The notes beneath the pieces were generated by a model. The model was not told the DNA's origin. It did not search any database and saw only the letters and a list, made by a program, of their open reading frames with translations. From Escherichia coli (lineage in GTDB: Bacteria; Pseudomonadota; Gammaproteobacteria; Enterobacterales; Enterobacteriaceae), in the NCBI RefSeq assembly GCF_044324785.1, contig NZ_CP172127.1: a stretch of DNA of 64,000 nucleotides; one strand, 5' to 3'. Each line of letters begins with the position of its first letter. Positions within the stretch are counted from its first letter, which is position 1. Shown here piece by piece: positions 8,679 to 64,000 of this stretch. Both the position numbers and the translations under genes were made by a program.

Positions 8679-8887
8679 AGACAAATCCTTCGCCAAAATT
8701 AAAGGGGCATCTGTAAAACGAGGGATTATGCGCGGCAAATAAGAAGTGCGGAAATAGCGAAATGCAAAATTATAACCTGCTGCACATTTTATTTTGAAAC
8801 GAATAAAATTTGGAAAAAAGCAAGTCAGAGAGAAGAAACAGAAAAGCAGAGTGTGAAACAGTAAGTTCACACTCTGCGTTAATTCAT

Positions 8888-31583: not shown

Positions 31584-31620
31584 AAGCGCATGTTATTGTT
31601 TAACATGCGCTTTTTTATTT
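31584..31620 (+). terminator. Rho-independent terminator after tRNA-Ser
   Basis: agcgcatgtta-ttgtt-taacatgcgct perfect stem followed by ttttttattt. Confidence 0.65.
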
Positions 31621-37077: not shown

Positions 37078-37403
37078 AATTTGCTCCTTATGAATGAGTT
37101 AGCGGTATAAATGAAAAAGCCGCGTCTCCCGGAGAAGACACGGCCTGACAGATGAAATGAATGACGTTTATTGTCTGAGAAGCCCTTCACTGGCGAGCTG
37201 CGTATTTTTATGGAAGGAGATCACCCAATAACCCCATCGGGATCGGGTAATAACCGGCCAGACTGTGATCGATTCAGATGCCATTTGGCAGCAAAAGAGC
37301 CTTCGGCAATAAACGTGATGTACAACCCGGCATATCTGTTACTCCCTGAAAGTAAAAGGCCCCGGTCATTATGACCGGGGCCTGAAGGGGAGTGACCTGA
37401 TTA

Positions 37404-45339: not shown

Positions 45340-45460
45340 GCAATCACCTTGACGCTTAGCTTATAAACGTAATTATATTTATTTATGGGTAGCGTTTAAT
45401 TTGTAGGTTGCCAGTTTATTAAGGATGGGTAAGATGAAAGCGACTGAGCTTCATCAAAAA

Positions 45461-46606
45461 TTACTCTTCAACAACATCACGATATGTTTTTAATGTTTTA
45501 TTAATGATCATCACACTCGAGAATTTATCTTGAATGCGTTTTCTGCCATTGATACCCATTGCGACGCGCGTTTCTGGGTTATCCAACAGGAAACCGAGTT
45601 TCTCCGCTAATTCCTCGACAGATTTACTTTTTACAATCAACCCATTATAGTTATTGATAATTAAGCTATCACAGCCACCAACATCATAAGCGATACAAGC
45701 GCGCCCGACAGAGGAAGCTTCCAGCAAGATACGCGGTACGCCTTCGGCGTAGACCGACGGCAAAGCAACGATATTTGATTCTTCAATTAAATCAAATACA
45801 TTAGAGCAATGACCGAGCCAGTTAATCACGCCTTCGCTTTGCCACTTCTGTATCGTCGCCAGCGGAATTGCGTCTTTATCATTCTCAACTAAAATACCGG
45901 CAACATTCAGCGTAAAGTGAATATTTTTATTACTCAGTATTTTTTTGGCTTCAATCAGGTCACCCAGTCCTTTACTCCACAGCATACGGCTGGCAAAAAG
46001 GACGACCGGAACATCACGCTGCTGCTCCAGAGAGTATTTGTAAATCTCTGGATTAATACCCGCGCCATCAATAACAATAGTCTGTTTGTAATCGATACCA
46101 ACCAGATCGGCAAGTTTAGCTCTGTCTTTATCATGTTCGAACATAAACAAACTGCATTTGTTACTGGCGATATACTTATATGCCATAACAGTAAAACTTC
46201 GCAGCAGCTTAAGACAGGCAGACTCTGCGGAAAATACTCGGCCCAAACCGACAAAACTCAGAATAACAGGACGATGGGTACTTTTAGCCAGAAAACCGCC
46301 GATCAAACAGGGCTTGATGGTAATGCAGTGCAACAAATCTGGATTGATGTTTTGAATAATTTTCCGAGCCTTAGAAAAGGCCCGAAAGAAAATCAAAACG
46401 TTGAATGATTGGGCGACAAGTGGAATGTTATGGCAAACAAAACCTAATGTCCTGAATTTTTCCGCTATTTTATCATCGACAAAATGGCTAATAATGTGAA
46501 TCTCATAACCGGCATCTCGGGCGGCAATTGCACGATCGGTCCAATGCAAATCAAAATACCAATCCGAATTTATGAAATAACACAGTTTTTTCATTGCTAT
46601 GTCCAC
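45461..46606 (-). CDS. wbbO: GT4-family glycosyltransferase, WbbO-like (galactosyltransferase of D-galactan I pathway)
   Basis: 381 aa; GT-B C-terminal signature EGVPRILLEASSVGRACIAYDVGG; position matches the last gene of the Klebsiella wzm-wzt-wbbM-glf-wbbN-wbbO order. Confidence 0.75.
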   Translation of the reverse strand: MDIAMKKLCYFINSDWYFDLHWTDRAIAARDAGYEIHIISHFVDDKIAEKFRTLGFVCHNIPLVAQSFNVLIFFRAFSKARKIIQNINPDLLHCITIKPCLIGGFLAKSTHRPVILSFVGLGRVFSAESACLKLLRSFTVMAYKYIASNKCSLFMFEHDKDRAKLADLVGIDYKQTIVIDGAGINPEIYKYSLEQQRDVPVVLFASRMLWSKGLGDLIEAKKILSNKNIHFTLNVAGILVENDKDAIPLATIQKWQSEGVINWLGHCSNVFDLIEESNIVALPSVYAEGVPRILLEASSVGRACIAYDVGGCDSLIINNYNGLIVKSKSVEELAEKLGFLLDNPETRVAMGINGRKRIQDKFSSVMIINKTLKTYRDVVEE

Positions 46607-48666
<2,060 letters not shown>

Positions 48667-50559
48667 TTAGCCAAGAATCGAACGGCGAACTTTATAATAA
48701 TATTTGATGAGCTTATTTCTTCTTGGCGAACCGACAGGAGCATATTTGTTAACATATGGCATTAAAGCTCTTTTAATCTTTGTCTGCAGTAACACGGTTT
48801 GCTGCAGTTCAGTATGTTGGTTAGGTACTACCGTGGCCACAGGTAACTGGCGATAGTAGATTTCTTTCTCCCATGGCGTACTTAAAACATTCTCAAGAAA
48901 ATCATCATAGAAATCGACTTTCTCAGTATTCCATGGTTTGTTTTCACCCGCATAGTGAATCATTTTTGGATTTCTTCTGGCTTGCAAAAAGCGCATATAG
49001 GTTGAAAACTTGAGATTCGGGAAGAAATCATCGGTATTACCATTACCATGGTACACGTTCCATTCTAATGGTAAGAATTTGACTCGGCCAAAGAAGACTT
49101 TGTTCATGATATCCTGATCTAAGAACCAATACTTTTTGGCTTTCAATGCTGACATCAATTGAGCAAAGGTATTCTCTGTAACCATTTGTTCGACATTAAA
49201 AACAATAATCCCGGCCTGAAAATATTCGTCAGGATTAGTCATTCCTAATGTCTTTTTCAGGTATTGCTCTGCAGGCATAATGCCATCATCTGATTCTGAC
49301 ATGGTACCAAACTTCACAAACCCTTCCATGACGATGTCTTTAACAGCGGCAACCAGGTTAGTGCCGATCTCGACATCCAGAAGTGTCGCCAAATCAGCCT
49401 TCACCACGGTGTCAGAATCGATAAACACAACTTTTTTATACTCGCGGAAAAGTTGCGGGATGAACAAGCGCGCATAGGTCGACGCACTAAAATGTGCACG
49501 GGTATGAACATCACTCATCTCAGTGAATGAATTCACATCAAAAAAGCGCAATGATATGTTGTTATGACCAGCAACTAGCTTGATAAGGCGTTGTTTATTT
49601 AAATGACTGACCTTATTTTCCAGAACAACGATATCATAGTTTCTGCTCGCATCAGAATGGAGAACAATTGAATTGATTAATGCCCCGCCACTTAATGCAT
49701 AGTTATTATCAAAACTAATAACAACCGGTACGCTTTCGTCAAAAACGGGCTTTAATTTACCATTAAATGTTTCAGCAGTAACAAACGTGCGCTGTAGTTC
49801 TTTTATTTTTAGCTGTTTATCTTGTTGACATTTGATGATATAGATATTGAATAAACGCTCAGCAATGTGTCCTATAACTCGTTTTTCTTGAGCGTTGTAG
49901 TTATTCATCGAAATCCGATCTTCAAGATTAGACAAAATAGCAAAAAGCCATTCAGAATAATCCAGGAACATGTCTTTGCGCATAACAAACATGTTCGTAT
50001 AATAACCATCAGTTGCATTATTGAATTGTTGAATCGCAGCTTTATATTGTGGATACAGCTCTTCAACGACATCCAGGGCAGACTGATAGTCTTTAATGTG
50101 TAAAAACTCACCTTTTGCATAATGATCAAGGTTATTCTTACTTCCTGCCGATGTTACCGACCATTTTTTGGGTAACAGCAGATCATATCCATCGACGCAG
50201 GTGCTTATGGATTCATCACTTAATCCAAACTGGCTTTCGTATTCGGCATTGATGAGCGGGTAGTTGACTACCCCCCAGTTATCCTCAGGATGATTTTGTT
50301 GTTCTGCAAAGTTCAAGTGTCTGCGGTAATGCATGAATCCCACATAGTCAGCCAGAGATTCATTCTTCCACACCCAGTAGTGGGCCGTCAGCTCACAATA
50401 GAAGGGGTTTTTAAAGGAAATGTTGTCTCCGCTATCATCCCCTTCACAGCCAATATCATTATAAGTATTAGCCTTCCCGACATGCAGTGGTTTAATAATA
50501 GAGGCATTTAGAAAAGCACTGGGTTTGTGGTGACATGTATAAATTTTGATACTATTCAT
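48667..50559 (-). CDS. wbbM: WbbM-like bifunctional glycosyltransferase (N-terminal DUF4422-like domain + C-terminal GT8 domain)
   Basis: 630 aa; C-terminal GT8-like region (VVISFDNNYA...FIDSDTVV). Size and position match Klebsiella WbbM. Confidence 0.8.
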   Translation of the reverse strand: MNSIKIYTCHHKPSAFLNASIIKPLHVGKANTYNDIGCEGDDSGDNISFKNPFYCELTAHYWVWKNESLADYVGFMHYRRHLNFAEQQNHPEDNWGVVNYPLINAEYESQFGLSDESISTCVDGYDLLLPKKWSVTSAGSKNNLDHYAKGEFLHIKDYQSALDVVEELYPQYKAAIQQFNNATDGYYTNMFVMRKDMFLDYSEWLFAILSNLEDRISMNNYNAQEKRVIGHIAERLFNIYIIKCQQDKQLKIKELQRTFVTAETFNGKLKPVFDESVPVVISFDNNYALSGGALINSIVLHSDASRNYDIVVLENKVSHLNKQRLIKLVAGHNNISLRFFDVNSFTEMSDVHTRAHFSASTYARLFIPQLFREYKKVVFIDSDTVVKADLATLLDVEIGTNLVAAVKDIVMEGFVKFGTMSESDDGIMPAEQYLKKTLGMTNPDEYFQAGIIVFNVEQMVTENTFAQLMSALKAKKYWFLDQDIMNKVFFGRVKFLPLEWNVYHGNGNTDDFFPNLKFSTYMRFLQARRNPKMIHYAGENKPWNTEKVDFYDDFLENVLSTPWEKEIYYRQLPVATVVPNQHTELQQTVLLQTKIKRALMPYVNKYAPVGSPRRNKLIKYYYKVRRSILG

Positions 50560-50573
50560 CTTATTACCAATTA

Positions 50574-51314
50574 TTAAGCCATTGCTTGCTTGTAAAGTTC
50601 AATGATTCTCTCTGCTGAGCCAATTTCGCGGAGTTTATGGTTTTCGATCCAAACAACTCTGTCACAGATTTTTTCAACATCACTCATATTGTGGCTAACG
50701 AATAATATCGTTACACCCTTATTTTTGAAGTCTCGTATTGTTTGTATACATTTGGCCTGGAACGAAATGTCACCGACAGCAAGTACCTCATCGATAATAA
50801 GTATATCGGGTTCTACCTGGCTGATGACAGAGAATCCAAGCTTCGCAAGCATACCACTTGAGTACACGCGAATAGGTTCGTCAATGAAATCACCCAGCTC
50901 GGAGAACTCAATTATCCGATCCATCCGTTGCTGAACCTCTTTGCGGCGTAGCCCAAGCAGGGTCGCATTGAGATAAATATTTTCTCGCCCGGTTAATTCA
51001 GGGTGAAAACCGCCGCCTAGCTCAAGCATTGAGGCAACGCGTCCCTGGGTTGTAACAGTGCCTTTTGTAGGCTTAATGACGCCGGCCACCAGCCCGAGGG
51101 AGGTACTTTTCCCTGCGCCGTTACGACCAATCAGCGCTACGGCCTCGCCTTTACCCACGGTGAAGGTAATGTCTTCGATCGCAAGATATTTACGCCCTTT
51201 TAACAGCTGAAAAGCTCTTTTAGGGTGAAATACGAGATCCTTAATTCCTGAGCCAATATGGTGGTAAAGAGGATACTCTTTCGTAACGTGACTAAAGTTT
51301 ATTACTGGTTCCAT
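50574..51314 (-). CDS. wzt: O-polysaccharide ABC transporter ATP-binding protein Wzt (short form, no carbohydrate-binding extension)
   Basis: 246 aa; Walker A GRNGAGKST, signature YSSGMLAKL, Walker B ILIIDE. Confidence 0.9.
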   Translation of the reverse strand: MEPVINFSHVTKEYPLYHHIGSGIKDLVFHPKRAFQLLKGRKYLAIEDITFTVGKGEAVALIGRNGAGKSTSLGLVAGVIKPTKGTVTTQGRVASMLELGGGFHPELTGRENIYLNATLLGLRRKEVQQRMDRIIEFSELGDFIDEPIRVYSSGMLAKLGFSVISQVEPDILIIDEVLAVGDISFQAKCIQTIRDFKNKGVTILFVSHNMSDVEKICDRVVWIENHKLREIGSAERIIELYKQAMA

Positions 51315-52093
51315 TACAAAATCTCTGCAAATCGATATTTTAATTTATTAAAAATACTCAGGCCCACAATTGTCAGGACTAAACCTGTAATGTAAAGGAT
51401 TGAAATATATTCATAATTTAAGACGCCATCCATGAACAGCTGCCGCCAGCTGAGGATCATGCTTGCCAGAGGATTATAGGTAATAATCCAGCTAAATTTT
51501 TCAGGAATCATATCTGACGCATATAATATCGGCGTGCAATAAAACATGAGCATGATACCAAGGCTGACAAATCGCTCTAAATCCCTGAAGAACAGATTTA
51601 GCGTAGAAAATATGATTGAAATACCAAATGTAAAAATCACCTGACCAAGCGCAATAATTGGTACGCCCCAGAGCCATGAGAGCGATGGACGCATACCATA
51701 CACGAACAGGAATGCAATAATCACAGGAATTGTACACAAGAAATGTACCCCTTCCATCATGACATTACTCAATGGAATAACTGAGCGCGGAAAAACTGTT
51801 TTTTTGATTATTTGCGCATTGGCTATAAACGAAAACAAGGAATTTGTCGCCGAGCTGGCAAACCATTGCCACGGAAATAAACCGGTAATCAAGAAAAGGG
51901 TATAATTCGGGATCTGCACTCGCATAACGAGCTTAAAAATGAAATAATATATCATTGCAAAAAGCAGTGGATTCGCAATTGACCATAAGTAACCAAATAC
52001 GCTGCTTTTATAACGTACCTTTAAATCTTTGTTTGTTATAACAACAAGAAGATCAAACAAATACCCTATATTATACTTCATTTTTATACTCAT
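51314..52093 (-). CDS. wzm: O-polysaccharide ABC transporter permease Wzm
   Basis: 259 aa; six-TM ABC-2-type permease; stop overlaps the wzt start. Confidence 0.9.
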   Translation of the reverse strand: MSIKMKYNIGYLFDLLVVITNKDLKVRYKSSVFGYLWSIANPLLFAMIYYFIFKLVMRVQIPNYTLFLITGLFPWQWFASSATNSLFSFIANAQIIKKTVFPRSVIPLSNVMMEGVHFLCTIPVIIAFLFVYGMRPSLSWLWGVPIIALGQVIFTFGISIIFSTLNLFFRDLERFVSLGIMLMFYCTPILYASDMIPEKFSWIITYNPLASMILSWRQLFMDGVLNYEYISILYITGLVLTIVGLSIFNKLKYRFAEIL

Positions 52094-52390
52094 AAATTAT
52101 TCTACAAAAAATTCCGTACGTAATATGTATCAAACAGAATTATCGATAAGATCTGCTGTGCTCGAGAGACGAACAGCTATTCCCATAAACAAAGACCAAT
52201 TGTAACATCATTTTGCACAAGCAATATGTAAACAATCTTTCCTGCGCATTAGCACTCCGGAATCGGAGATGATCGCTAACCTCAGTAACCGCTGAATGAA
52301 AATGTGATTCTCGTGGAAGATACATAAACCATCCTTTAAGATTGTAAATAAAATGTTAAATCGAACAATGAGTTTATTCTAAAATTCAGA

Positions 52391-53640: not shown

Positions 53641-55366
53641 GTGGTTCTTCCGCAACTTGGGTGGAAGAAAATGGATGAAACTTTCTGGTGAACAAGGATC
53701 TAAGCTGTTTTAAGTTATGGGCAACGCAATGCACTCTCTTAAGACACTTCTACAGTTACCTTGCGGATGGCGATGCAGTCGACAAATTATTAGCTCTGAC
53801 GGTATCACCCTCCATCTCCACGGAAAACGCAAAACAGCACAATGTCCTGAATGCTCTAAGCGTAGCGACTCTGTTCATAGTTCTCGTCGGCGCCGGATAC
53901 AGCATCTACCCTGCTCCGGGCAGACGCTATGGCTTGTATTTTCCGTCCGCCACTGGTACTGCCGTAACCCTGTTTGTTCACGAAAAATTTTTGCCGAGTC
54001 GCTTGCTCCCTTCGCCGGTTCACACCAGCAGTCTTCACAGGCGTTACAAAATTTACAACGTCAACTGGGATTAATAGCCGGAGGTGAGGCTGGAAAACGG
54101 GCTGCAACGGCAGTGGGTCTCCGTTGCAGTGCAGATACTCTTCTTCGCAGGGTTATCAATACCCCGGGGACGAAACAGTCAGGCGCGCCTCATGTCGGTA
54201 TTGATGAGTGGGCGTGGCATCGGGGCCACCGTTACGGTAAGTTAATCGTCAATCTTGATACTCACCGTCCCCTCGTCCTGCTTCCCGGTCGTGATCAGCG
54301 TACGCTGGCGACCTGGTTCAGAAAATATCCGGAAATACAGGTTGTCTCGCGTGATCGCAGTGGAGTCTATGCAACAGCAGCACGTGAAGGTGCACCTCAG
54401 GCCAGACAGGTGGCCGATCGATGGCACCTGCTAAAAAATATTGGCGATGCGCTTGAACGAATGATGTACAGACATATACCTCTGATACGTCTTGTTGCCA
54501 GTGAGTTGTCACTAAAGAAATCACCTGAGCCAGAACTGTCTGTGCCTGCAGTATCGCTCCGTCGTCCGGAACGCCTTAAACAGCAAACCCGCAAAAAACG
54601 GCATCAGCGTTGGACAGAGGTTATGGCCCTGCATAACAAGGGATGTAGTTTCAGGGAAATATCCCGTATTACAGGCCTGTCGCGTGTGACAGTCAGTCGC
54701 TGGGTGCGTTCAGGAACATTCCCTGAAATGTCAACCCGACCTCCAAAGCGAGGGCTTCTGGACCCATGGAGGGAGTGGTTAAAAGAGCAACGAGAAAGCG
54801 GTAATTATAACGCCAGCCGGATATGGCGGGAAATGGTGGCCCGGGGGTTTACAGGCAGTGAAACCATCGTCAGGGATGCTGTTGCCAAATGGCGTAAAGG
54901 CTGGATCCCACCGGTTACTACTGCCGCCAGACTTCCTTCAGTGTCCCGGGTAAGCCGGTGGTTGATGCCCTGGAGAATAATCAGGGGGGAAGAAAATTAT
55001 GCTTCCCGATTTATTAGTCTGATGTGTGAAAAAGAACCGGAGCTGAAAATAGCGCAGCAACTGGTACTCGAGTTCTACCGTATTCTGAAAACCCAAAATA
55101 AATCACAGCTTAGCAGCTGGTTCACTCGAGTCCACGAAAGCGGCTCAGCAGAACTTCGGCGCGTGGCTGCGGGGATGGAAGCTGATGCTGCGGCTATATG
55201 TGAGGCAATCAGCAGTCGCTGGAGTAATGGTGTTGTCGAAGGTCATGTAAATCGCCTGAAGATGTTGAAACGCCAGATGTATGGTCGAGCCGGATTTGAA
55301 CTGCTCAGGCAGAGGGTCATGAGTCCACTGGCATGAAAATCTCCACCCAAGTTGCGGAAGAACCAC
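53641..55366 (+). mobile_element. ISL3-family insertion sequence nested inside the IS66-like orfA
   Basis: 25-bp perfect terminal inverted repeats GTGGTTCTTCCGCAACTTGGGTGGA at 53641-53665 and, inverted, at 55342-55366; encloses a single transposase gene. Confidence 0.75.
53717..55336 (+). CDS. ISL3-family transposase
   Basis: 539 aa; N-terminal zinc-finger-like region (CGWRC...CPEC); ISL3-like architecture. The second Met at 53729 is an alternative start. Confidence 0.8.
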   Translation: MGNAMHSLKTLLQLPCGWRCSRQIISSDGITLHLHGKRKTAQCPECSKRSDSVHSSRRRRIQHLPCSGQTLWLVFSVRHWYCRNPVCSRKIFAESLAPFAGSHQQSSQALQNLQRQLGLIAGGEAGKRAATAVGLRCSADTLLRRVINTPGTKQSGAPHVGIDEWAWHRGHRYGKLIVNLDTHRPLVLLPGRDQRTLATWFRKYPEIQVVSRDRSGVYATAAREGAPQARQVADRWHLLKNIGDALERMMYRHIPLIRLVASELSLKKSPEPELSVPAVSLRRPERLKQQTRKKRHQRWTEVMALHNKGCSFREISRITGLSRVTVSRWVRSGTFPEMSTRPPKRGLLDPWREWLKEQRESGNYNASRIWREMVARGFTGSETIVRDAVAKWRKGWIPPVTTAARLPSVSRVSRWLMPWRIIRGEENYASRFISLMCEKEPELKIAQQLVLEFYRILKTQNKSQLSSWFTRVHESGSAELRRVAAGMEADAAAICEAISSRWSNGVVEGHVNRLKMLKRQMYGRAGFELLRQRVMSPLA

Positions 55367-55467
55367 TTTTCATCCGTCGTTGACACAAGAGGGCAGTATC
55401 GCTGCTCTGGCCCGTCAACATGACGTCAACGATAATCTGCTCTTTAAATGGATAAGGCTCTAGCAAC

Positions 55468-55695
55468 GTGAAGGGCGGGCGGGTCTGTCGACCCCGAAAA
55501 AATGCATCGTCGCTTCCTACCCTGATACCCGTGCAACTTCAGGCGGAGCCTTCTCTCCCGGAATTCGAACCACTATCCTGTTCACCTCCCACTGCCTGCC
55601 ACATAAAATGTCGGGGCGGAGAAATAACGCTGACCTCTCCCTCAGTTGAGCTTATGAGCACTGTCCTGCGCGAACTGATGCGGGGGTCTGTATGA
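55468..55695 (+). pseudogene. IS66-family OrfA C-terminal fragment
   Basis: 75-aa ORF ending ...LMSTVLRELMRGSV, whose stop overlaps the orfB start in the typical IS66 arrangement. Confidence 0.5.
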
Positions 55696-56057
55696 TAAAT
55701 CTTCCCGCAGGCACAAAAATCTGGCTGGTTGCCGGTATCACCGATATGCGCAACGGCTTCAATGGTCTCGCCGCAAAGGTGCAGACAGCGTTGAAAGATG
55801 ACCCGATGTCCGGCCACGTCTTCATCTTCCGGGGCCGCAGCGGCAGTCAGGTCAAACTGCTGTGGTCCACCGGCGACGGACTGTGCCTGCTGACCAAAAG
55901 GCTGGAGCGTGGCCGCTTCGCCTGGCCGTCGACCCGCGATGGCAAAGTGTTCCTGATGCCGGCGCAGCTGGCGATGCTGATGGAAGGTATCGACTGGCGA
56001 CAGCCAAAGCGGTTACTGACGTCCCTGACATGTTGTAGCCCAGGTCTTCTTCGTTGA
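55692..56057 (+). CDS. IS66-family accessory protein TnpB (OrfB)
   Basis: MINLPAGTKIWLVAGITDMRNGFNGLAAKVQTALKDDPMSGHVFIFRGRSGSQVKLLWSTGDGLCLLTKRLERGRFAWP matches the IS66 OrfB family as I recall it. Confidence 0.8.
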   Translation: MINLPAGTKIWLVAGITDMRNGFNGLAAKVQTALKDDPMSGHVFIFRGRSGSQVKLLWSTGDGLCLLTKRLERGRFAWPSTRDGKVFLMPAQLAMLMEGIDWRQPKRLLTSLTCCSPGLLR

Positions 56058-56877
56058 TAAAGTTCACATCCAGAGGATGGATACTTCCTGTAGCCCGTAA
56101 TATCGTCGATTCAATATCCTGCACATTCATCGGGATCACCGATGCAAGAAAAGCCCATTGATCAGAATAAGGCTGGAAATTAATATCAACAAAAACGCTT
56201 CCCCCCGATGCACGCGGTCTTTTTTGCAGAGGTAACGCGATAAGATTACCAAATCCTCCTTTTGGCATAGTATCCTGATTAGGAAATAATCGGTCATAAG
56301 AACTCAATTGCAGCTGTCGGGTCCGGCTGCACGTATAGCTAATAATAGCAGTCCCCAGACGGCGAGCTTCGCGGGCCGAAACTCGTGAAGCAAAAAATAT
56401 CCAGACATGCGCTCCCTGACGTGAGCGGGATATTTCCAGCGCAGCAGGTACACTCAGCTCATCACAGGCTCGCATGAACGCGGATGCATCCTTCTGCCAT
56501 TCAGCTTTATCAAAATCAACAGCCAGAAAATAACAGGAATCATCTTCCAGCAACGGATATAACCCGGCAGTATGCGTGCCTGCCAGATGCTGGTAGATGA
56601 CAAGATCAGATACAGGGAGTAACTGACGGTGCGTACAGTCCCCGCATTTTATCCGGGGTTTACCGCATATTCTCGCCTGCCATTCGTTAGCGCAGGCAGG
56701 AGAGTACCCTGATTTGCCGCTGGTTTTACTTTCCCAACGAAGGGCCCATATATCATCACGCCCACGAAACAACCGACGAAATAATGCAACCTTCTCGTCG
56801 GTGGATAATACGGAAACGCGCTGCACAGGGCTCGGCGGTTTACGTCGCCATTCCAAGTAATGAGACCAGACGGGCAT
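56058..56877 (-). pseudogene. Primase-like protein (archaeo-eukaryotic primase / prim-pol type N-terminal domain), 3'-truncated at the IS66 boundary
   Basis: Motifs LAVDFD (DxD) and RQGAHVWIFF (H-containing motif). The reading frame continues into antisense IS66 orfB sequence (to 55852), so the native C-terminus, where a helicase domain would be expected, is missing. Confidence 0.5.
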
Positions 56878-57080
56878 TTTCTGCCCTCAATGCAGCTAAT
56901 TCATCGCTGTCAGATTTATGAACCATATTCGTTACCTGTATCCGATCCACTGAGGCACCACGGCAGAAATTCGGGTCCCCTACACTGATGACAAAGCGCC
57001 CCGCCCTCTTCTGCCTATTAACTCAAGCACCTCCCAACAACTTACAGAAACTTAATTCTAATACCTAATACAGCTGTAAT

Positions 57081-57644
57081 TCAGTTGTGTCGTGGTCGGC
57101 CCCGGTTACTTTTTTCGGGAAGCCTGCTACGGCCCAGAATAATACCGTGTTCTTTCTGATCCTGTTTAGCCAGGTAGCTGAGGGCGTAACGTAAGTCGTC
57201 TACTGCGGACTTATCACTATAGTGAATCACGTGATCGATACGCACCGGGTATTTATCTTTAGCCCGGCACAGATGAAAATAACCCTCCCCTTCCGTGATC
57301 CGCCTCCAGATATCCCCCAGTTGCCTGGATATCTGATAAGAGTTCTTGTGACGTTGCCCATCCAGATAGCCGATAAAATGAATATGAAGCCCTTTGTCTG
57401 GTGTATATTCCATAACCCAGTAATATCCTGCCAACATCGTCTGGGTTTCGCTAAGTAAACGGTATATTTCCATACACATACTGTGCTTACAGGAATGCCC
57501 GAAACTGGGCGTGTCTTTCCTGTAGGCAAAATCAATTCTGAAAGGTAACAGTTTAGAAAAACGTTGAAACAATCCCTCCATGTGTTCATTCACATCTTTC
57601 AGAATCGCGAAATTCATTTCGTAATTGGGATTGGCATTATACAT
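57081..57644 (-). CDS. Inovirus Gp2-family protein (YfjJ/YagK-like), typical of CP4-57/P4-like elements
   Basis: 187 aa; resembles the YfjJ family recalled from CP4-57. Confidence 0.65.
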   Translation of the reverse strand: MYNANPNYEMNFAILKDVNEHMEGLFQRFSKLLPFRIDFAYRKDTPSFGHSCKHSMCMEIYRLLSETQTMLAGYYWVMEYTPDKGLHIHFIGYLDGQRHKNSYQISRQLGDIWRRITEGEGYFHLCRAKDKYPVRIDHVIHYSDKSAVDDLRYALSYLAKQDQKEHGIILGRSRLPEKSNRGRPRHN

Positions 57645-58775
57645 TTTATAGTCCTTAATTTATAAAACTCACAGGAAGAGGAAATTATGTAAATACTGAG
57701 AGAACATAAACGCCGTAGCACGGCATTAATAAACGAAGTAAACCAGCAGCACAGACACCCTGATAAAACTGTTTTGTATTACCGCATCGCTGTAACGAGG
57801 TAATACTTCAGAATTCAGTGAGGCTCTCTTAAACAGAGGACCAGTAAGAATTACAATGGTAAAAACACACCTCATAGAATTGAGTTTAAGGAAGCACCAT
57901 TCACTCAACCTGACATTCACAAAAGTCAGTACCAGGTGGCCTCAGGTAACATCGCTATTAATATTATCCTGCCATTAAGTAAAAACAGAAACTCTGTGAG
58001 GAAGTCTCACCAATATTTGACCAGTAGCATAAAGAATAACGATATGAGAGATACGCCCACACCAGAGATGATTACCCCATACAAAAAGATAATATTTATT
58101 AATACCACCGCACCTCAATAGACTAATAACACACTAATAGCGTTTTGGTACACACTTAACACTAACTATGCACCAGACACATACTCAGGATTAACATTCC
58201 CAACATTTATGGTACTCTCAAAGAGTATAATTCACCACACAGGTAAACTCTCACACCAGTAGTATGGAGATAATGCTGTACACATACTTACAGAGTAAAG
58301 TGTACAGTTAGCATACAGTGGCGAGCAGACATTACAACATAAAGACATAAGATAGCATAATAAGAACATAACAAAACTCCCACTAATAATACTAATTAAC
58401 CTTAATTCTTTTTTGAACAGGAAATCAACATAGCTCCAGACCTCTTCAGGTCATACACTTTTGTATTGGATGTTCAATGTGTACTTCTGCACAAACAAAA
58501 AAATAAAACCCGCAAAATAAAATATCAGCCCCAAAAATACAGCGTGAAACACCACGTTATGGATATGTTTTCATATCACCAGAAGCATATTTCACACATA
58601 CAATACAGAAACAATTCATCATATAATCAGGGTTACTGTTCACTCCTCTCGGTTATCCGCGAGACGATAAAACATGACACTAATCACAAAAACGAGAGAT
58701 AGTATTTGCGAAATATAAACAACATAAAAATCAATGCGTTGCGATTTTTTATTTTTTCAGACATGCATGCCCCCT

Positions 58776-58811
58776 CTGCTATTGTTGCTAGCCGGCTAGC
58801 AACAATAGCAG
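58776..58811. repeat. Perfect 36-bp palindrome (18-bp arms, no spacer) just downstream of the 607-aa gene
   Basis: ctgctattgttgctagcc|ggctagcaacaatagcag read directly; preceded on the plus strand by tttttatttttt. Confidence 0.7.
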
Positions 58812-58853
58812 GGATATACAAACATCGGATGCCAAAAACACGTTCCGATAATA

Positions 58854-60677
58854 TCATCGAGGATCTGACTGGTTGTTTTTAGTATCATCACCACAAATGA
58901 TGGTTAATGCGTTGTAGATCAGTCTGCGTCTGTTCTTGTTTTCAGCATTATTTCCATACAACATCATGACGTTTTTAATATCATCAACCGGTGATATTAC
59001 ATAATCAACCAATACGCCAAGCTTCTCAATACATTGCAGTAAAGTATATTTGTGTCTGCCCGTAAATAATCCTATCAGGTTTTCTTTACTTTCACGACTG
59101 GATAATATTTTGTTCTCTGTAATTAATTCAGCCAACGTTTCACCATCGTAAACACGTTCTTTATCTATCAGAATATTTATCTTATCTAACGCCCTCTCTA
59201 CATTATCAAGAAGACCTGTAATATACGGAGGCTGAATATCTGACTTTGTACTAATATTTGCAAGCATCGAATTATACATTTTAATGACACGCATCAGAGT
59301 AAAATTATTCGCATCATATTGTATTTCATCTTCATTATACGCAGGATCCGTCACGACCCTTAAGTCCATAAATGCATCCTGATAAGCTTTTACATAATCA
59401 AGTAATTCGAACAGTGAACCATGCTTTATTTTCTCCCTGTTTAATTTGATCTCCAGCGCTATCCTGAGAACTGAAAAAGCGCCGGGAAGATACCCAGAAG
59501 GTAACTCGTATTTTGGGGATTCATCATAAAACCGAAGAGCTTTGTGGAGTTTGTTCCGCCGAATCAGATAAATAAGGACGGCCAGTAACATGTAGCACCT
59601 GGTCACATAACCACGGGCATTCTGCAACTGTTCAAAATAATTAATAATGTTTTCCAGATATACATCATCATAACTTTTCTTATCAGAAAGATTAAACACC
59701 ATATCTTTTAAAGATTCGATATATTCTTGTGATTTATCATCAAGTGACACAATATAACGAGTTAATGCTCCTTTGGGGCCACTCTCAAACTCATGAAACC
59801 GTTCAAGTAATGCTCTTGCATAAGGCGTTGTGTCAAAAATATTAAAATCATAAAGATAGCGTGCAGCGTAGCCATACAACCCATGTACCCAAAGCCCTTC
59901 TCTTATCAGCACTCTGAGATAATATGCAATACTGTCAAGTATCTTTACCTTCCGTTGCATATCAAGCAAAATACTTAATGAATAAAATGCATAATAGAAC
60001 TTGTCAATGTTGTTGAGTATTCTGTCCAGCTCACTCTTATCAAGCTTCTTCTCTCTGTAATCCTTCTTGTATTCATTCTTACAGGCCTTTATATATTGTT
60101 TCATAAGGCTCTTCCTTTTACCGTACCCTTTTCGAATAGTTCCCTGGTATTTTCCCAGCTCATACATTTTTCCGTTTTCCCGAAAATCTTCTCTGTTAAA
60201 TCCCAGTTCAGCAAGATACTCCCGGAGATAACGTTTAACGGCAGCCTCATCGCTTTCTGTACCAGAGTAATCCAGGCAGGGACAATATGATTTTTGCAAA
60301 AAATTATAGATATGATAATAAAACCCTGTTTCATTCTCCGGACGATATGTGTTATATATATCCAGCACAATAAAAACAACTCCAAAGCTTTTCAGAAAAT
60401 AGTTACGGATATATTCGGACTTTAATGTTGAATACACAGGGTAAGAATTCATCATGTAATAAAAATATTCATACCGGGAAAATATAATTCGCCGTTGTTC
60501 CAGACTATACACCCCTTCAGCATCAATAATTTGACTGAGCTCATTATAACGTTGATCCCAGAATCTTTGATGCGCTCCAAAATCAGTACTCTTCCGCTTA
60601 TCTCTCGGACTCTCTCCTTCCTTAAACAACTCAAAAACTGTACAAATATCATACAAAAGATTTGTAAACATGCGCAT
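58854..60677 (-). CDS. Hypothetical protein (607 aa), no recognisable domain; AT-rich orphan gene in a P4/CP4-57-like module
   Basis: Long uninterrupted ORF in a visibly AT-rich block; Lys/Tyr/Asn/Glu-rich; no P-loop or nuclease motif identified by eye; divergently arranged with alpA. Confidence 0.6.
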   Translation of the reverse strand: MRMFTNLLYDICTVFELFKEGESPRDKRKSTDFGAHQRFWDQRYNELSQIIDAEGVYSLEQRRIIFSRYEYFYYMMNSYPVYSTLKSEYIRNYFLKSFGVVFIVLDIYNTYRPENETGFYYHIYNFLQKSYCPCLDYSGTESDEAAVKRYLREYLAELGFNREDFRENGKMYELGKYQGTIRKGYGKRKSLMKQYIKACKNEYKKDYREKKLDKSELDRILNNIDKFYYAFYSLSILLDMQRKVKILDSIAYYLRVLIREGLWVHGLYGYAARYLYDFNIFDTTPYARALLERFHEFESGPKGALTRYIVSLDDKSQEYIESLKDMVFNLSDKKSYDDVYLENIINYFEQLQNARGYVTRCYMLLAVLIYLIRRNKLHKALRFYDESPKYELPSGYLPGAFSVLRIALEIKLNREKIKHGSLFELLDYVKAYQDAFMDLRVVTDPAYNEDEIQYDANNFTLMRVIKMYNSMLANISTKSDIQPPYITGLLDNVERALDKINILIDKERVYDGETLAELITENKILSSRESKENLIGLFTGRHKYTLLQCIEKLGVLVDYVISPVDDIKNVMMLYGNNAENKNRRRLIYNALTIICGDDTKNNQSDPR

Positions 60678-60765
60678 CTGCTCTGATCTCCGGTTGGTTT
60701 CCGTTTTATCACAGGGGACATTCTGGCCTTAACGTAGCAAATTAATGACATAGCCTTCAACTCAC

Positions 60766-61026
60766 ATGGAGAACAATATGTCAACCCAGACCGGACATTT
60801 TTATACCCCCTCACGCATCCTGCGTATGGCTGAACTTACCCGACTCCTTGGTATATCAAGATCGACCATCTACGAAAAAATGAATCCGGCATCAAAATAC
60901 TACGATGCCACCTTTCCCCGGCCTGTCCGGCTTGGGAGTTCGGCTGTAGGCTGGCGGGCATCTGCCATTGATGAGTGGTTAACTTTACATACAACACCAA
61001 CCAGATCCGTAACTAAGGATAAATAA
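60766..61026 (+). CDS. alpA: AlpA-family transcriptional regulator (prophage/island excisionase-like HTH)
   Basis: LRMAELTRLLGISRSTIYEKM...FPRPVRLGSSAVGWRASAIDEW is the AlpA signature; immediately upstream of the DUF3987-like gene. Confidence 0.7.
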   Translation: MENNMSTQTGHFYTPSRILRMAELTRLLGISRSTIYEKMNPASKYYDATFPRPVRLGSSAVGWRASAIDEWLTLHTTPTRSVTKDK

Positions 61027-61041
61027 GGAAAACTGTACGCC

Positions 61042-62607
61042 ATGACAAAATTATCCCCCCCTGAACTTGACATAACTAAACTGCCTGACAGGTGCCAGGC
61101 ATTACTTGATGAAATGCATGAAGAAACGGGAATAAGCCGTGAAATACTGCTGTCTGTTATGCTGACGGTCAAGGCTGTCTCGGTCCAGGATACGCATGAA
61201 GTTGAACTTTCTGGAGGGCAGCGTACCAGTCTTCAGATATATATGTGTCTTTCATCAGCATCAGGCAGTGGAAAAACCTCTGCCTGCGCAAAATTAATCG
61301 CCCCTGTTCATGAAACAGAAGAAGAACTACATCAGGCATATATCGACGATAAAAAAAACTATGATCGCATGATGGAAATGTGGACAACAGATAAAAAAAT
61401 CCTGGAGCGGAGATATAAAAAGGAAATGGAAAGATCCCCGGAAAATGCTGCTGCTGCACGAGCAGCGCTTGAAAAGTGTATAGCAAATAAACCCGTACCT
61501 CCCGTACAACAGGTTCTCATCGTGAATGACGCGACACCAGAAGGGATAGCTTTGAAACTCAGCCAGTCACCTTCTCTTCTGTTGCTGTCTGATGAAGGAG
61601 GAACTATTCTGGATAAGCGTTTCGAACGCAAATCGGCGCTGTACAACACATTATGGAGTGGGCAACCAGTCACCGTAGAACGGGCATCCAGACCCGGGTT
61701 CCGGGTAAAGGATTCCCGTCTCACTATGCTTATACTGACTCAACCGGTAATATTTGATAAGTTTTTTACTCTCACTGGCGACCAGATCCGGGGCAATGGC
61801 TTTCTGGCCCGGGTGCTATTTTGCGAACCCGGAGCAAATAAAATAATGACGACAGAACCGCATACTGCCACTCCTGTTGTAACGCAGCAATGTGCAACCT
61901 GTTTTCATGAGAAAAGTTTTGGCAGTCAGATCAGAGACTCTCTGAGAGCGTCCCGGGAAAGGCGTGCAAAAGGTGAGCAACGCATCCGCATGACATTATC
62001 ACACGCAGCATCCCACGATCTGGAAATCTTTCACGAAGAAAATATGAGTGCTGTCAGGCAGAACCCACGTATGACCACTTTCGAAGACATTATCGTCAGG
62101 AAAAGAGAACAGGCTGTTCGAATAGCCGCACTTCTGGAGCTGGAGAACAATCCACATGGTACAGTAATAACACGAGAAAGTATCAATAGTGCTATTTATC
62201 TCGTTGATTTTTATTTTCAGCATCTTATATCCAAACTGGAATCACTTCGGGAAATATCTCCTGCAGAAAAACTGGATAAATGGCTCAGAGAAAATATCAT
62301 CCGGGTAAAAGGATACGAATATCAAAAAAGCCATATACTACAATATGGTCCATATGCTCTCAGGAATAAATGTGTTCTTGATGAAGCACTTGATATACTT
62401 GCAGAACAGAAAAAAATCGTAATTGATTATTCAATCGGCCAAAAAATCATTTATATCGGTGACGCGATTACACCTTGTGAATTAGCAAATGAGGCAAACA
62501 TCCCGATAATGGAGCGTGGAATGTTTATAGTCTGTTGGGACCATAAGCTGAATAAGTACAGAAATGAAGAACAGACTAAAATATGGAACATAACTACAAA
62601 AAATTAA
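61042..62607 (+). CDS. DUF3987-like protein (YfjI-like), typical partner of alpA in P4/CP4-57-like elements
   Basis: 521 aa; operon position after alpA as in CP4-57 (alpA-yfjI), recalled from memory. Confidence 0.65.
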   Translation: MTKLSPPELDITKLPDRCQALLDEMHEETGISREILLSVMLTVKAVSVQDTHEVELSGGQRTSLQIYMCLSSASGSGKTSACAKLIAPVHETEEELHQAYIDDKKNYDRMMEMWTTDKKILERRYKKEMERSPENAAAARAALEKCIANKPVPPVQQVLIVNDATPEGIALKLSQSPSLLLLSDEGGTILDKRFERKSALYNTLWSGQPVTVERASRPGFRVKDSRLTMLILTQPVIFDKFFTLTGDQIRGNGFLARVLFCEPGANKIMTTEPHTATPVVTQQCATCFHEKSFGSQIRDSLRASRERRAKGEQRIRMTLSHAASHDLEIFHEENMSAVRQNPRMTTFEDIIVRKREQAVRIAALLELENNPHGTVITRESINSAIYLVDFYFQHLISKLESLREISPAEKLDKWLRENIIRVKGYEYQKSHILQYGPYALRNKCVLDEALDILAEQKKIVIDYSIGQKIIYIGDAITPCELANEANIPIMERGMFIVCWDHKLNKYRNEEQTKIWNITTKN

Positions 62608-62830
62608 AGTTCCCGTCTTTTATCATTCAGTTACCAACCTGAATATCTGAAACAATGCCAGACATCGGTTACAAACTGGCATTGTTTTTATCATTCAATT
62701 TATAAACTACAATATTACGTATTATTTTTACATTTATGTCATTGCAAATATCAGACAAACAAGCATTATAACTCAATAAGTATATTTTTCGTGATTACAG
62801 ACGACATCTGCAAATCTGTGAGATGTGATT

Positions 62831-63985
62831 TCATCGCTGGTTTTCCATAATCTGAGACATCACATAATCCGCCCATGCCTGCATCATCGGTATACGCTGA
62901 TCCAGCAGATCAGTCCGGTGATATGCCGCCTCAACCTTATTTTTCAGCGTATGGGCAAGCGCCCTTTCCGCCAAATCCCGCGAATATCCCTGTTCGCTAC
63001 ACCAGTCCCTGAATGTTGAACGAAAACCATGTGCTGTAGCCACTCGTCCGGGTATATCACTGATGGCCTTCTTTTTACGCAGAAAACTCGTCAACACCAT
63101 ATCTGAAAGGATCTGCTGCTTTCTGGGAGAAGGAAACACCAGTTCGTCATGCAGACCACGTATATTTTCCAGAACGTGAATGGCCTGTCGGGATAAAGGA
63201 ACACGATGCTGTATCCTGGCTTTCATTCTTTCTGCGGGTATCGTCCATATCCGCTTATGAAAATCAATTTCAGCCCAGCGCATTCCCCTTGCTTCGCCCG
63301 AGCGGGTTGCTGTCAGTATCACCATTAATAACAGTGCCCGGGTAACATTATAAGGTTCATCTGTATACACACTGGTCGCCACAAAAAGCGGTAACTGCCT
63401 CCAGGGCATTGCCGGCTGGTGTTCATCACGTCCTCTTGATTGCTGTGGAAGCAAATGATCAACCACATCAACAGGATTCGCCACACAAAAACCATGCGCC
63501 CAGCCCCACTGCATAACAACATGAATGCGCTGTTTAACCCGGCTTGCCGTTTCTGACAAGGTTAACCAGACTGGACGCAGTGTTTCTGCCACGTCCGCAG
63601 CCGTAATCGAATCCAGCGTTTTTGCTCCCAGTTGAGGAAACGCGTAATTCTCAAGCGTCGATAACCACTGCCTTACATGCTTTGGATTTTCCCATCCAGG
63701 AGACAGTTCTGCATGTACACGCCTGGCTGCATCGGCAAATGTTGGGATAACAACTTTTTCAGCTTCAGCCTTTTTAATCTCCAGAGGATCATCACCTGCA
63801 GCAAGTTGCTCTCGCATTATCCGGGCAGTACGTGCAGCTTCAGCAATACTGACCTCAGGATAAGTTCCCAATCCAGCATTACGCCTTTTTTGTGTCACCG
63901 GACTTACATAACGAAAAACCCATTTACCCCTCCCCTTTACTGAAGAAGGATGAAGAGTCAGTCCTGTAATTCCCCCATGGGGCAA
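62831..63985 (-). CDS. int: Tyrosine recombinase / P4-type integrase (N-terminus may extend beyond the window)
   Basis: N-terminal arm-binding region (GGITGLTLHPSSVKGRGKWVFRY), AYPEVS-like motif (GTYPEVS) and C-terminal catalytic region (HGFRSTFRDW ... AYHRTDLLDQR). The ORF-track start is a TTG and the frame is still open at position 64000. Confidence 0.85.
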   Translation of the reverse strand: MPHGGITGLTLHPSSVKGRGKWVFRYVSPVTQKRRNAGLGTYPEVSIAEAARTARIMREQLAAGDDPLEIKKAEAEKVVIPTFADAARRVHAELSPGWENPKHVRQWLSTLENYAFPQLGAKTLDSITAADVAETLRPVWLTLSETASRVKQRIHVVMQWGWAHGFCVANPVDVVDHLLPQQSRGRDEHQPAMPWRQLPLFVATSVYTDEPYNVTRALLLMVILTATRSGEARGMRWAEIDFHKRIWTIPAERMKARIQHRVPLSRQAIHVLENIRGLHDELVFPSPRKQQILSDMVLTSFLRKKKAISDIPGRVATAHGFRSTFRDWCSEQGYSRDLAERALAHTLKNKVEAAYHRTDLLDQRIPMMQAWADYVMSQIMENQR

Positions 63986-64000
63986 TGGTTTGTCATCAGG

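Follow-up and report, generated by a model that had tools for sequence, protein, structure and literature searches.

A conserved four-repeat palindrome lies just past an orphan gene in mobile chromosomal islands

The core origins of polyomaviruses and papillomaviruses are built on short initiator-binding repeats, exemplified by the four GAGGC pentamers of SV40 site II and by the E1 binding site. The ITR of parvoviruses and AAV carries Rep-binding tetramer repeats in a hairpin stem. At the RNA level, stems of 16-25 perfect bp fall in the size range of RNase III substrates. In Enterobacterales, anti-phage defence genes are commonly carried by islands that combine integrase, AlpA and DUF3987 genes, and the same gene set also forms the core of the PICMI satellites (PMC10803314). 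A PriCT-DUF3987 protein is a demonstrated 5'-3' helicase, and the domain has been placed in superfamily 6 (PMC11724360). In Gram-negative PICIs, the known origins are found immediately past pri-rep, where two iteron sets surround an AT-rich region (PMC6092414). Here we describe a palindromic element that is previously undescribed, deeply conserved and always located just past one orphan gene in mobile chromosomal islands. Besides a P4-type integrase and AlpA, the backbone of this island family contains a DUF3987 helicase, an HUH protein of the YagK/YfjJ type and a TPR-like orphan protein of ~600 aa.

The stretch of DNA analysed, hereafter the window, covers 64,000 nucleotides of an Escherichia coli genome (NZ_CP172127.1) and includes part of a chromosomal island; its final 20.6 kb are identical to E. 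coli SMS-3-5. From the window end inward, the island presents the integrase, DUF3987 and AlpA genes, the divergent 607-aa gene and then the palindrome (Table 1). Past the palindrome there are 1.2 kb of AT-rich non-coding DNA and the 187-aa Gp2/YagK-like gene, followed by a truncated AEP primase of a TOTE system and by IS elements.

Table 1. Coordinates of the palindrome, its repeats and the neighbouring island features in the window.
Feature	Position	Strand	Remarks
Perfect palindrome, 36 bp	58776-58811	.	E. coli variant of the four-repeat element
Left arm, outer TGCTA repeat	58777-58781	+	KGCTA-N4-KGCTA pattern match
Left arm, inner TGCTA repeat	58786-58790	+	9 nt after the outer repeat
Right arm, inner TGCTA repeat	58797-58801	-	TAGCA on the + strand
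Right arm, outer TGCTA repeat	58806-58810	-	TAGCA on the + strand
A/T tract TTTTTTATTTTTT (+ strand; A-rich on the gene strand)	58745-58757	.	18 nt past the palindrome, gene-distal side
187-aa Gp2/YagK/YfjJ-like protein with HUH endonuclease motifs	57081-57644	-	RefSeq 'inovirus-type Gp2 protein'
607-aa orphan gene, element always 3' of its end	58854-60677	-	predicted all-alpha, TPR-like
AlpA-family HTH gene	60766-61026	+	Pfam PF05930, E 7e-19; divergent from the 607-aa gene
DUF3987 protein, candidate replicative helicase of the island	61042-62607	+	Pfam PF13148, E 3e-63
P4-type tyrosine integrase	62831-64000	-	gene runs past the window end

The two arms, CTGCTATTGTTGCTAGCC (58776-58793) and GGCTAGCAACAATAGCAG (58794-58811), are 100% complementary over 18+18 nt with a spacer of 0 nt, confirming the perfect 36-bp spacerless palindrome that a first-pass annotation had described 3' of the 607-aa gene. 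The palindrome begins 42 nt 3' of the stop codon of this ORF (58854-58856, minus strand) and occurs once in the window, where no further copy was found with up to 3 mismatches allowed. Scanning the whole window for perfect hairpins with loops of at most 10 nt ranked it as the longest, with a stem of 18 nt vs 13 nt for the runner-up, and bore out the earlier remark that it is longer and more perfect than a typical terminator stem; in 30 block-shuffles of the window, the maximum perfect stem was 8-10 nt. Its KGCTA-N4-KGCTA pattern has no other match in the window and, across 17 loci, matched at the palindrome only. Likewise, the repeat pair was absent elsewhere in the window and the islands, and extra copies of the repeat were not enriched in promoters or other island regions. 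When folded as RNA, either strand is predicted to form a stem of 16-18 bp with a CCGG loop (z about -5), and the gene-strand hairpin is predicted to be strong (-43.6 kcal/mol for a 121-nt region, z -4.8). No Rfam covariance model matched at the palindrome (E <= 1, region 55000-64000). In E. coli 47-1826, six flank differences lie within 130 nt of sequence and the palindrome is intact. A 57-aa ORF (58684-58857, minus strand) that contains the palindrome and forms an ATGA overlap with the 607-aa stop was rejected as a gene because its peptide is of low complexity, it carries two indels in strain 47-1826 and it is not conserved as coding sequence in Shigella.

Outside the window, 158 of 5426 complete E. 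coli genomes contain the identical palindrome, in each case in the same island and as one copy per island (the "two places" counted for each genome are the two strands of one palindrome). The search elsewhere in genomes that the first-pass annotation had proposed thus placed the sequence in this island only, with no dispersed copies outside it in the 5426 genomes. The 24-nt core gave 0 matches in both the genome_contigs and the viral_contigs collections, and a BLAST search of the palindrome region against plasmids and phages found nothing. A literature search for the core sequence GCTACATGTAGC did not find this string, and the RefSeq records of the examined islands carry no annotation at the element. 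Among the cargo of these islands are restriction-modification-like genes of types I and III, conflict systems of the SLATT/GTPase kind and a TOTE primase; genes for capsid, packaging and Fis were not seen in the examined island parts. The K-12 element CP4-57 (intA-yfjH-alpA-yfjI-yfjJ) was considered as a relative and set aside, given that it has no comparable palindrome and that YfjH is unrelated to the 607-aa family. Since CP4-57 contains alpA-yfjI-yfjJ and lacks both a member of the 607-aa family and the palindrome, the element is specifically associated with the 607-aa gene.

A sister island with the same gene order encodes a 611-aa protein with 72% identity to the 607-aa protein of the window; this protein is widespread in Shigella flexneri and among E. 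coli strains, for example O104:H4 and E2348/69. Its element, 39 nt past the 611-aa stop, reads CCCTGCTAATTTTGCTAA-cca-TTAGCAAAATTAGCAGGG. Between the two island types the non-coding surroundings are about 60-65% identical with many indels, and the homologous 16-bp stem shows 3 differences, all of them double compensatory changes (T:A->A:T, G:C->T:A, G:C->A:T). At the centre, CCGG in the window is replaced by a 3-nt loop in the Shigella type. Within the Shigella-type lineage, the outer stem also changes pairwise (ACCC/GGGT vs CCCCC/GGGGG). The loop is CCA in most of these islands and TGG in strain 550, which is the reverse complement and hence a flipped loop.

Conservation was further assessed in 11 lineages chosen by protein, comprising the window, the Shigella type and nine loci from an exhaustive HMMER search, in which full-length relatives of the 607-aa protein were recovered at 23-33% identity and no DNA criterion was used. 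The nine fetched loci share the order (integrase, 157-aa protein,) YagK/YfjJ <- DUF3987 <- AlpA, then a divergent 607-aa homolog. In all 11 lineages, a near-perfect palindrome of 30-50 nt was located 10-57 nt past the stop of the 607-aa homolog, and these homologs are 26-72% identical to the window protein. A homologous palindrome at the same position was thereby found in every related island examined, which answers the earlier suggestion to search related islands. In the distant lineages, identity to the window falls to 28-36% for DUF3987, 26-31% for the 607-aa family, 58-75% for AlpA and mostly 71-73% for the integrase, a divergence at which neutral non-coding sequence should be randomised. 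The GCTA(CA) repeats nevertheless stay at fixed positions while the flanking non-coding DNA is unalignable.

The shared plan consists of two (T/G)GCTACA copies per arm, 9 nt apart, and the arms are inverted, so that two of the four repeats face the other two. Most lineages have (T/G)GCTACA as the repeat, and E. coli and Shigella have TGCTA with other bases after it; the repeat variants comprise TGCTACA, GGCTACA, TGCAACA and TGCTAT/TGCTAG. Representative palindromes are formed by TTTCCCCTCTGCTACACCTGCTACA and TGTAGCAGGTGTAGCAGAGGGGAAA (25+25 nt, L023), CTCCGGCTACAATGGCTACA and TGTAGCCATTGTAGCCGGAG (20+20 nt, L019), ATCTATGCAACAGCTGCTACA and TGTAGCAGCTGTTGCATAGAT (21+21 nt, L021), and TGCTACACATGCTACA and TGTAGCATGTGTAGCA (16+16 nt, L017). 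Stems across the homologous sites have 15-25 perfect bp around a centre of 0-4 nt, and the inner inverted repeats are separated by 14 bp in the window, 13 bp in Shigella and 12 bp in the other lineages. Most lineages have a self-complementary centre (ACATGT, ACGCGT, GCCGGC), and some centres are non-palindromic. The lack of a spacer, which the first-pass annotation had noted, does not characterise the family, given the 3-nt loop of the Shigella relative and central mismatches in others. The constant features are the four repeats, two facing two, together with the pairing of the arms. The element is thus conserved in position, repeat sequence and dyad symmetry, with its arms kept identical.

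For a broader census, the pattern GCTACA-N3-GCTACATGTAGC-N3-TGTAGC was used; because it demanded the repeats, repeat conservation was judged from the 11 protein-led lineages only, and the census informs the free positions. Among representative genomes, matches came from Pseudomonas nitritireducens, Providencia vermicola, Providencia rettgeri, Citrobacter koseri and Salmonella enterica subsp. diarizonae. The consensus pattern had 0 matches in viral contigs, and with a free central dinucleotide it was found at 52 metagenome loci. At ~38 of roughly 57 sites, a homolog of the 607-aa family ends 16-100 nt upstream in the correct orientation; the sites without one mostly lie where a contig ends or where the context has decayed. 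Many sites, though not all, have a central CATG or CGCG.

Covariation was observed between the arms. The three linker pairs are Watson-Crick at 26/26 distinct sites with 3-4 pair types each, and the pair outside the outer repeat is U:A at 19 of these sites, G:C at 6 and other at 1. The 15-bp core is free of G-U pairs (0 among 130 cells at the covarying positions). The covariation score was 0.322 compared with 0.119 in shuffles, 0/500 of which reached 0.322, and sliding the partner columns by 1-3 abolished the pairing. Symmetric double changes also separate close loci, namely AAT/ATT vs AAC/GTT in the linkers of the P0093 lineage and CC/GG vs TC/GA between L073 and L085. None of the sites with asymmetric linkers (L037, L044, L055/L082, L056, L060 and L070) has an intact neighbouring gene, which is what one would expect if they were decaying remnants of a site that is otherwise actively maintained. 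The repeats can also multiply, with 4+2 copies in L031, 3+3 in L044 and, at the second site of L078, five direct copies. Furthermore, remnant sites outlast the 607-aa-family gene after its destruction by an IS (L075, L037 and L031).

Several explanations for this element were weighed. Its position just past a stop codon recalls an intrinsic terminator. Beyond the palindrome, however, the gene strand reads AGGGGGCAUGCAUGUCUGAAAAAAUAAAAAAUCG, and the absence of a U-run on the gene's strand, as stated in the first-pass annotation, holds for both strands of the window; a terminator scan did not call the window palindrome. With a T-run defined as at least 5 T within 8 nt on the gene strand, starting 0-2 nt past the stem, 5 of 30 distinct oriented sites have one and 25, the window included, do not. 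In addition, stems of 15-25 bp are far above those of terminators (about 5-12 bp with a loop of 3-8 nt). Canonical terminators lie further downstream in two lineages, as a canonical stem with a T-run ~80-100 nt beyond the palindrome in P0091 (class A) and as GAGTGAGG...CCTCACCCTTTT about 200 nt beyond it in P0089, which means that the palindrome is probably transcribed there within the 3' UTR and is not the terminator. The element is not a canonical terminator. Chance formation is excluded by the shuffles and by conservation in 11/11 lineages and at >40 metagenomic loci, and the repeat sequence is kept at 26-31% protein identity. We consider it very improbable that the palindrome is an ordinary intrinsic terminator of the 607-aa gene or a functionless product of chance. 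The first-pass annotation had listed protein binding, recombination or cruciform formation, and an unusual terminator as alternatives. Overall, the evidence points towards a sequence-specific, dyad-symmetric site over a canonical terminator, and accommodates both a DNA-level and an RNA-level role.

The main rival to a DNA-level role sees the palindrome as an RNA structure of the 607-aa 3' UTR, whose stem would block 3' exonucleases and stabilise the mRNA or serve as an RNase III site that controls it, as lambda sib does for int. In a variant of it, an RNA-binding protein could recognise the GCUA(CA) repeats, and the alpha-solenoid 607-aa protein might be this protein. An RNA element best explains the constant distance of <60 nt from the 607-aa stop, because in every lineage the element lies 10-57 nt past the stop of this same gene and of no other. 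It also agrees with the strong hairpins predicted for the gene strand, with the 16-25 perfect bp of stem that match the size of RNase III substrates, with the downstream terminators that imply transcription of the palindrome in two lineages, and with L021, where the element sits between convergent genes and a T-run follows the stem. Against it, G-U pairs are missing from all 130 cells at the covarying core positions, self-complementarity spans the centre where an RNA loop cannot pair, and the repeat sequence is conserved far beyond the needs of a stem. Moreover, loop inversion and changes in repeat number are DNA-level events, remnants persist where an IS has destroyed the gene, and no Rfam family matches. 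We regard such an RNA role as possible, if rather unlikely. A double-stranded operator or roadblock, bound by a symmetric oligomer of AlpA or of the 607-aa protein and controlling or insulating expression of the downstream cargo, would suit AlpA as the most conserved DNA-binding protein of the backbone, and the predicted fold of the 607-aa protein weakly resembles the RRNPP regulators NprR, AimR and PlcR; the 1-2 bp variation in inner spacing would be awkward for a rigid duplex-bound dimer, and we consider this role unlikely.

The flanks of the element raise the question of recombination, in which the palindrome would be a recombination or fragile site for exchange of downstream cargo, either site-specific (for example HUH- or integrase-mediated) or through palindrome-induced breakage, and could be likened loosely to an integron attC or to the 3' hairpin of IS91 or Helitron. 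Homology between close islands stops exactly at the distal edge of the palindrome, and the far-side cargo consists of varied defence genes. In the P0091 lineage two downstream classes part after ...TGTAGCCG, and in the P0093 lineage each of the two linker variants is found with each of the two downstream flank types. A second copy lies ~260-310 bp downstream in the P0089 lineage, where the segment between the two copies is conserved and homology ends right past the second one. However, the last functional element of a conserved module always marks the end of homology, and there is usually one copy per island, with no arrays and no target duplications. Two sites were seen to flank a 14-kb cargo in RWZE01000083.1 (L037); the second proved to be a remnant of another, decayed backbone copy with an IS-disrupted 607-aa-family gene, as in L075, and the pair was discarded as an example of flanking sites. 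The border pattern fits recombination at or near the element and also fits the element being the last constrained feature of the module, and we rate a recombination or fragile site as quite unlikely. A protelomerase target (telRL-type, as in phage N15) with the 607-aa protein as resolvase would account for a spacerless perfect palindrome beside a ~600-aa gene and for arm symmetry, which is expected to be maintained if hairpin ends replicate. Nevertheless, the fold predicted for the 607-aa protein is TPR-like and not that of a protelomerase or tyrosine recombinase, the sole tyrosine recombinase is the P4-type integrase, and a spacerless dyad is not universal, as the Shigella type with its 3-nt loop illustrates, so that a protelomerase target is extremely improbable.

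The proteins encoded by the island were examined for candidates that might act on the element. The 607-aa protein has no match in Pfam, PADLOC, PHROG or NCBIfam, and its predicted model (pLDDT 84.7) matches TPR-like folds only. The DUF3987 protein has PHROG matches to helicase and primase families and is named a DNA helicase there; its AF2 model is weak (pLDDT 67.5), with best Foldseek matches to MCM5/MCM7, ORC1 and winged-helix proteins at E 2e-3 or weaker. In an alignment of 11 YagK/YfjJ-family proteins, an HUH motif (H87-I-H89 in the 187-aa protein of the window) is invariant, as is YxxKxxxK (Y157-x-x-K160-x-x-x-K164). Pfam matches of the 187-aa protein to REP_ORF2-G2P and YagK_YfjJ_C are weak. 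These shared motifs are the hallmark of HUH endonucleases. Sequence-profile searches of the PDB with the 607-aa, DUF3987 and YagK families returned nothing significant.

The reading that we favour, tentatively and with somewhat less than even confidence, is that the palindrome is a hairpin/cruciform or symmetric-duplex DNA site for the HUH protein and/or the DUF3987 helicase of the island, most simply an origin. We infer that DNA is the active form, that one or both of these proteins bind it and that initiation of replication is the outcome. The island would excise before the element comes into play. The whole element can form a long hairpin on each strand, i.e. a cruciform, and its repeats, in the paired stem or in the symmetric duplex, would be recognised by the HUH nickase and/or the winged-helix end of DUF3987. 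These proteins would open or nick the DNA at the element and replication would start, with the two-fold symmetry allowing loading in both directions. If the element is an origin, the adjoining A/T tract of the window would be a candidate easily melted region; such a tract is not uniformly kept in the other lineages.

A DNA-level role is favoured because symmetry continues through the centre, because G-U pairs are not tolerated in the core and because the repeats are conserved beyond what a stem needs. The variation of 1-2 bp in inner spacing would be harmless at a hairpin tip, and the loop inversion and repeat-number changes show the arms interacting as DNA. The island also encodes the right kinds of enzyme, namely an HUH protein and a DUF3987 helicase, and the layout resembles hexameric-helicase origins and parvoviral Rep-binding elements, analogies that do not count as tests. 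Several points argue against an origin. The constant neighbour of the element is the 3' end of the 607-aa gene, not the helicase or HUH genes, and so close an association would be expected of a 3' element that acts in the transcript. PICI origins differ in layout (PMC6092414), and no conserved nick-site motif was found beside the palindrome in the flanks of the homologous sites. In addition, template-switching during replication could keep the arms of any palindrome perfect, whatever its function. A bolder version of the favoured DNA-level reading, which we think improbable, takes the element as the origin or hairpin-resolution site of an unrecognised type of island replicon, where a stand-alone HUH nickase and an MCM-like DUF3987 helicase would act on the extruded hairpin and the site would double as the junction for swapping defence cargo. 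Passage through a hairpin would keep the arms identical and yield loop-flip variants, providing a bacterial parallel to parvovirus and polyomavirus origins.

A cis element of 30-50 bp together with its partner genes (TPR-like, HUH and helicase) offers a handle on replication, regulation and cargo exchange in these islands. It is also a natural example of bacterial chromosomes stably maintaining a long perfect palindrome, apparently with its symmetry preserved. On the practical side, short-read assemblies often break or fold back at the element.

Compared with described systems, the element resembles purely RNA-level stabilisers in some respects. Like lambda sib and other 3' UTR stabilisers, it forms a long stable stem 3' of a mobile-element gene with no need for a U-run, and in some lineages a canonical terminator follows further downstream. 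Unlike a purely RNA element, it has conserved repeats, a self-complementary centre, no G-U pairs and arm events at the DNA level. With protelomerase targets (N15 telRL, TelK and TelA) it shares the spacerless perfect palindrome beside a ~600-aa gene and differs in its TPR-like neighbour and in the non-palindromic centres of some sites. It is unlike integron attC in being mostly single-copy and without arrays, the second copy being confined to P0089, and in having a P4-type integrase instead of IntI. Unlike REP/BIME sequences, it occurs as one copy per genome and not as many dispersed ones. As in SaPI/PICI satellites, the host island contains an integrase, AlpA and a primase/helicase; those satellites carry iteron origins (PMC6092414), whereas the repeats here abut as one palindrome 3' of a 607-aa gene divergent from the helicase operon.

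The likeness to HUH hairpin origins (parvovirus/AAV ITR, double-strand origins of rolling-circle plasmids and REP/RAYT) extends to a hairpin stem with tandem short repeats and to an element-encoded HUH protein, with invariant HUH and YxxK motifs, plus a helicase; the loop-flip variant of the Shigella type resembles the flip/flop forms of such origins. In contrast to them, the element is internal to an integrated island and not terminal, and the HUH gene lies 1-4 kb away. With SV40/E1-type core origins it has in common a perfect or near-perfect palindrome of four short repeats, two facing two, and an adjoining A/T tract (in the window). Those systems encode their own hexameric AAA+ helicase, and by analogy the DUF3987 protein is the candidate here. 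It differs from them in that the helicase is bacterial (DUF3987, SF6/MCM-like) and not SF3, the repeat unit is 9 nt, the site lies 3' of an unrelated TPR-like gene, and linker and flank bases are also symmetric, which is not required in the viral origins. On the strength of these sequence features, the element would belong among the repeat-bearing palindromic sites of mobile-element replicons, with a function that is predicted.

The 36-nt palindrome belongs to an element built from 9-nt-spaced (T/G)GCTA(CA) units, two in each inverted arm, and the number of copies of this unit varied between related sites. The site in Providencia rettgeri PROV023 (L031) carried four direct and two inverted copies, the second site of locus L078 carried five direct copies, and L044 had a 3+3 arrangement. 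Judging from the sequences, this variation suggests that slippage between repeats underlies the changes in copy number. The centre of the hairpin varied as well. In the Shigella-type islands, the sister islands encoding a homolog of the 607-aa protein, the 3-nt loop was TGG in E. coli strain 550 (L009), whereas it was CCA in the others compared (L005, L008, and L010-L012). The two loops are exact reverse complements, indicating that the hairpin centre was flipped between identical arms in strain 550. In the P0089 lineage of these islands, two copies of the element were found ~260-310 bp apart (L013, and also L040, L048, L050, L058, L069, and L078). The segment between them was ~90% conserved and contained a canonical terminator-like hairpin, and the homology shared by these loci stopped directly after the second copy.

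The palindrome also coincided with contig ends and with one inverted duplication in assemblies. Six short-read Logan assemblies (L015, L016, L018, L022, L024, and L025) had contigs ending inside it, ~48-87 nt past the stop codon of the gene, as expected from de Bruijn graph breakage where a palindrome exceeds the assembler k-mer. If longer-than-k-mer palindromes do break such assemblies, elements of this kind would be under-represented in contig interiors. In addition, the 1980-nt locus L062 (metagenome contig ERZ1035032 NODE-147) was a perfect inverted duplication with the palindrome at its exact centre and no less than 616 nt in each arm. This represents either an assembly fold-back at the palindrome or a genuine inverted duplication seeded by it.

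Coordinates of the features described in this section
Feature	Location	Strand	Remark
Hairpin, next-longest perfect	window 37357-37383		12-13 nt stem
Hairpin, next-longest perfect	window 8846-8877		12-13 nt stem
Hairpin, next-longest perfect	window 31584-31612		12-13 nt stem
mir-1002 match	window 62625-62712	minus	34 bits, E 0.003
57-aa ORF	window 58684-58857	minus	start in ATGA overlap with 607-aa gene stop codon
Element copy 1, P0089 lineage	L013 7840-7873
Element copy 2, P0089 lineage	L013 8147-8182
Hairpin with TGG loop	L009 3101-3133
Repeat site, PROV023	L031 446-493
Second repeat site	L078 ~6795-6850
Repeat site	L044 2145-2200
Upstream of Gp2/YagK-like gene	window 57645-58100		~450 bp
Palindrome-proximal stretch	window 58100-58770
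AEP primase gene	window 55692-56877		truncated
O-antigen-type cluster and ABC transporter	window ~43400-52100 (L001 1-8682)		SMS-3-5 annotation

Other perfect hairpins of the window were shorter, for example AGGCCCCGGTCAT-T-ATGACCGGGGCCT. A weak match to the Rfam microRNA precursor family mir-1002, located where the DUF3987 and integrase genes converge, scored far below the gathering score of 85; it is almost certainly merely a hairpin, possibly a bidirectional terminator. The 57-aa ORF reads through the palindrome in the frame AIVASRLATIA. It contained two indels in strain 47-1826 and was unconserved in the Shigella-type island, and by this comparison it is probably spurious.

The 1.2-kb "non-coding" gap between the palindrome and the HUH gene is a mosaic, since the stretch upstream of the Gp2/YagK-like gene was >90% identical to the Shigella-type island, whereas the palindrome-proximal stretch was ~60% identical with several large indels. 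The conserved portion could act as a promoter or leader for the HUH gene. Next to the integrase, an RtT sRNA feature was annotated in 47-1826 (L002) versus clpA in SMS-3-5 (L001), and therefore the island may occupy different chromosomal sites in different strains. The island region that holds the element also harbors an O-antigen-type cluster (glycosyltransferases, glf, rfbB, and a permease) bordered by IS903B and other IS remnants. Its TOTE-conflict-system AEP primase gene was truncated by an IS66-family tnpB, and in L011, the island of E. coli O104:H4, this gene was intact (~786 aa). Primases of the AEP type are known to partner DUF3987 helicases (PMC11724360).
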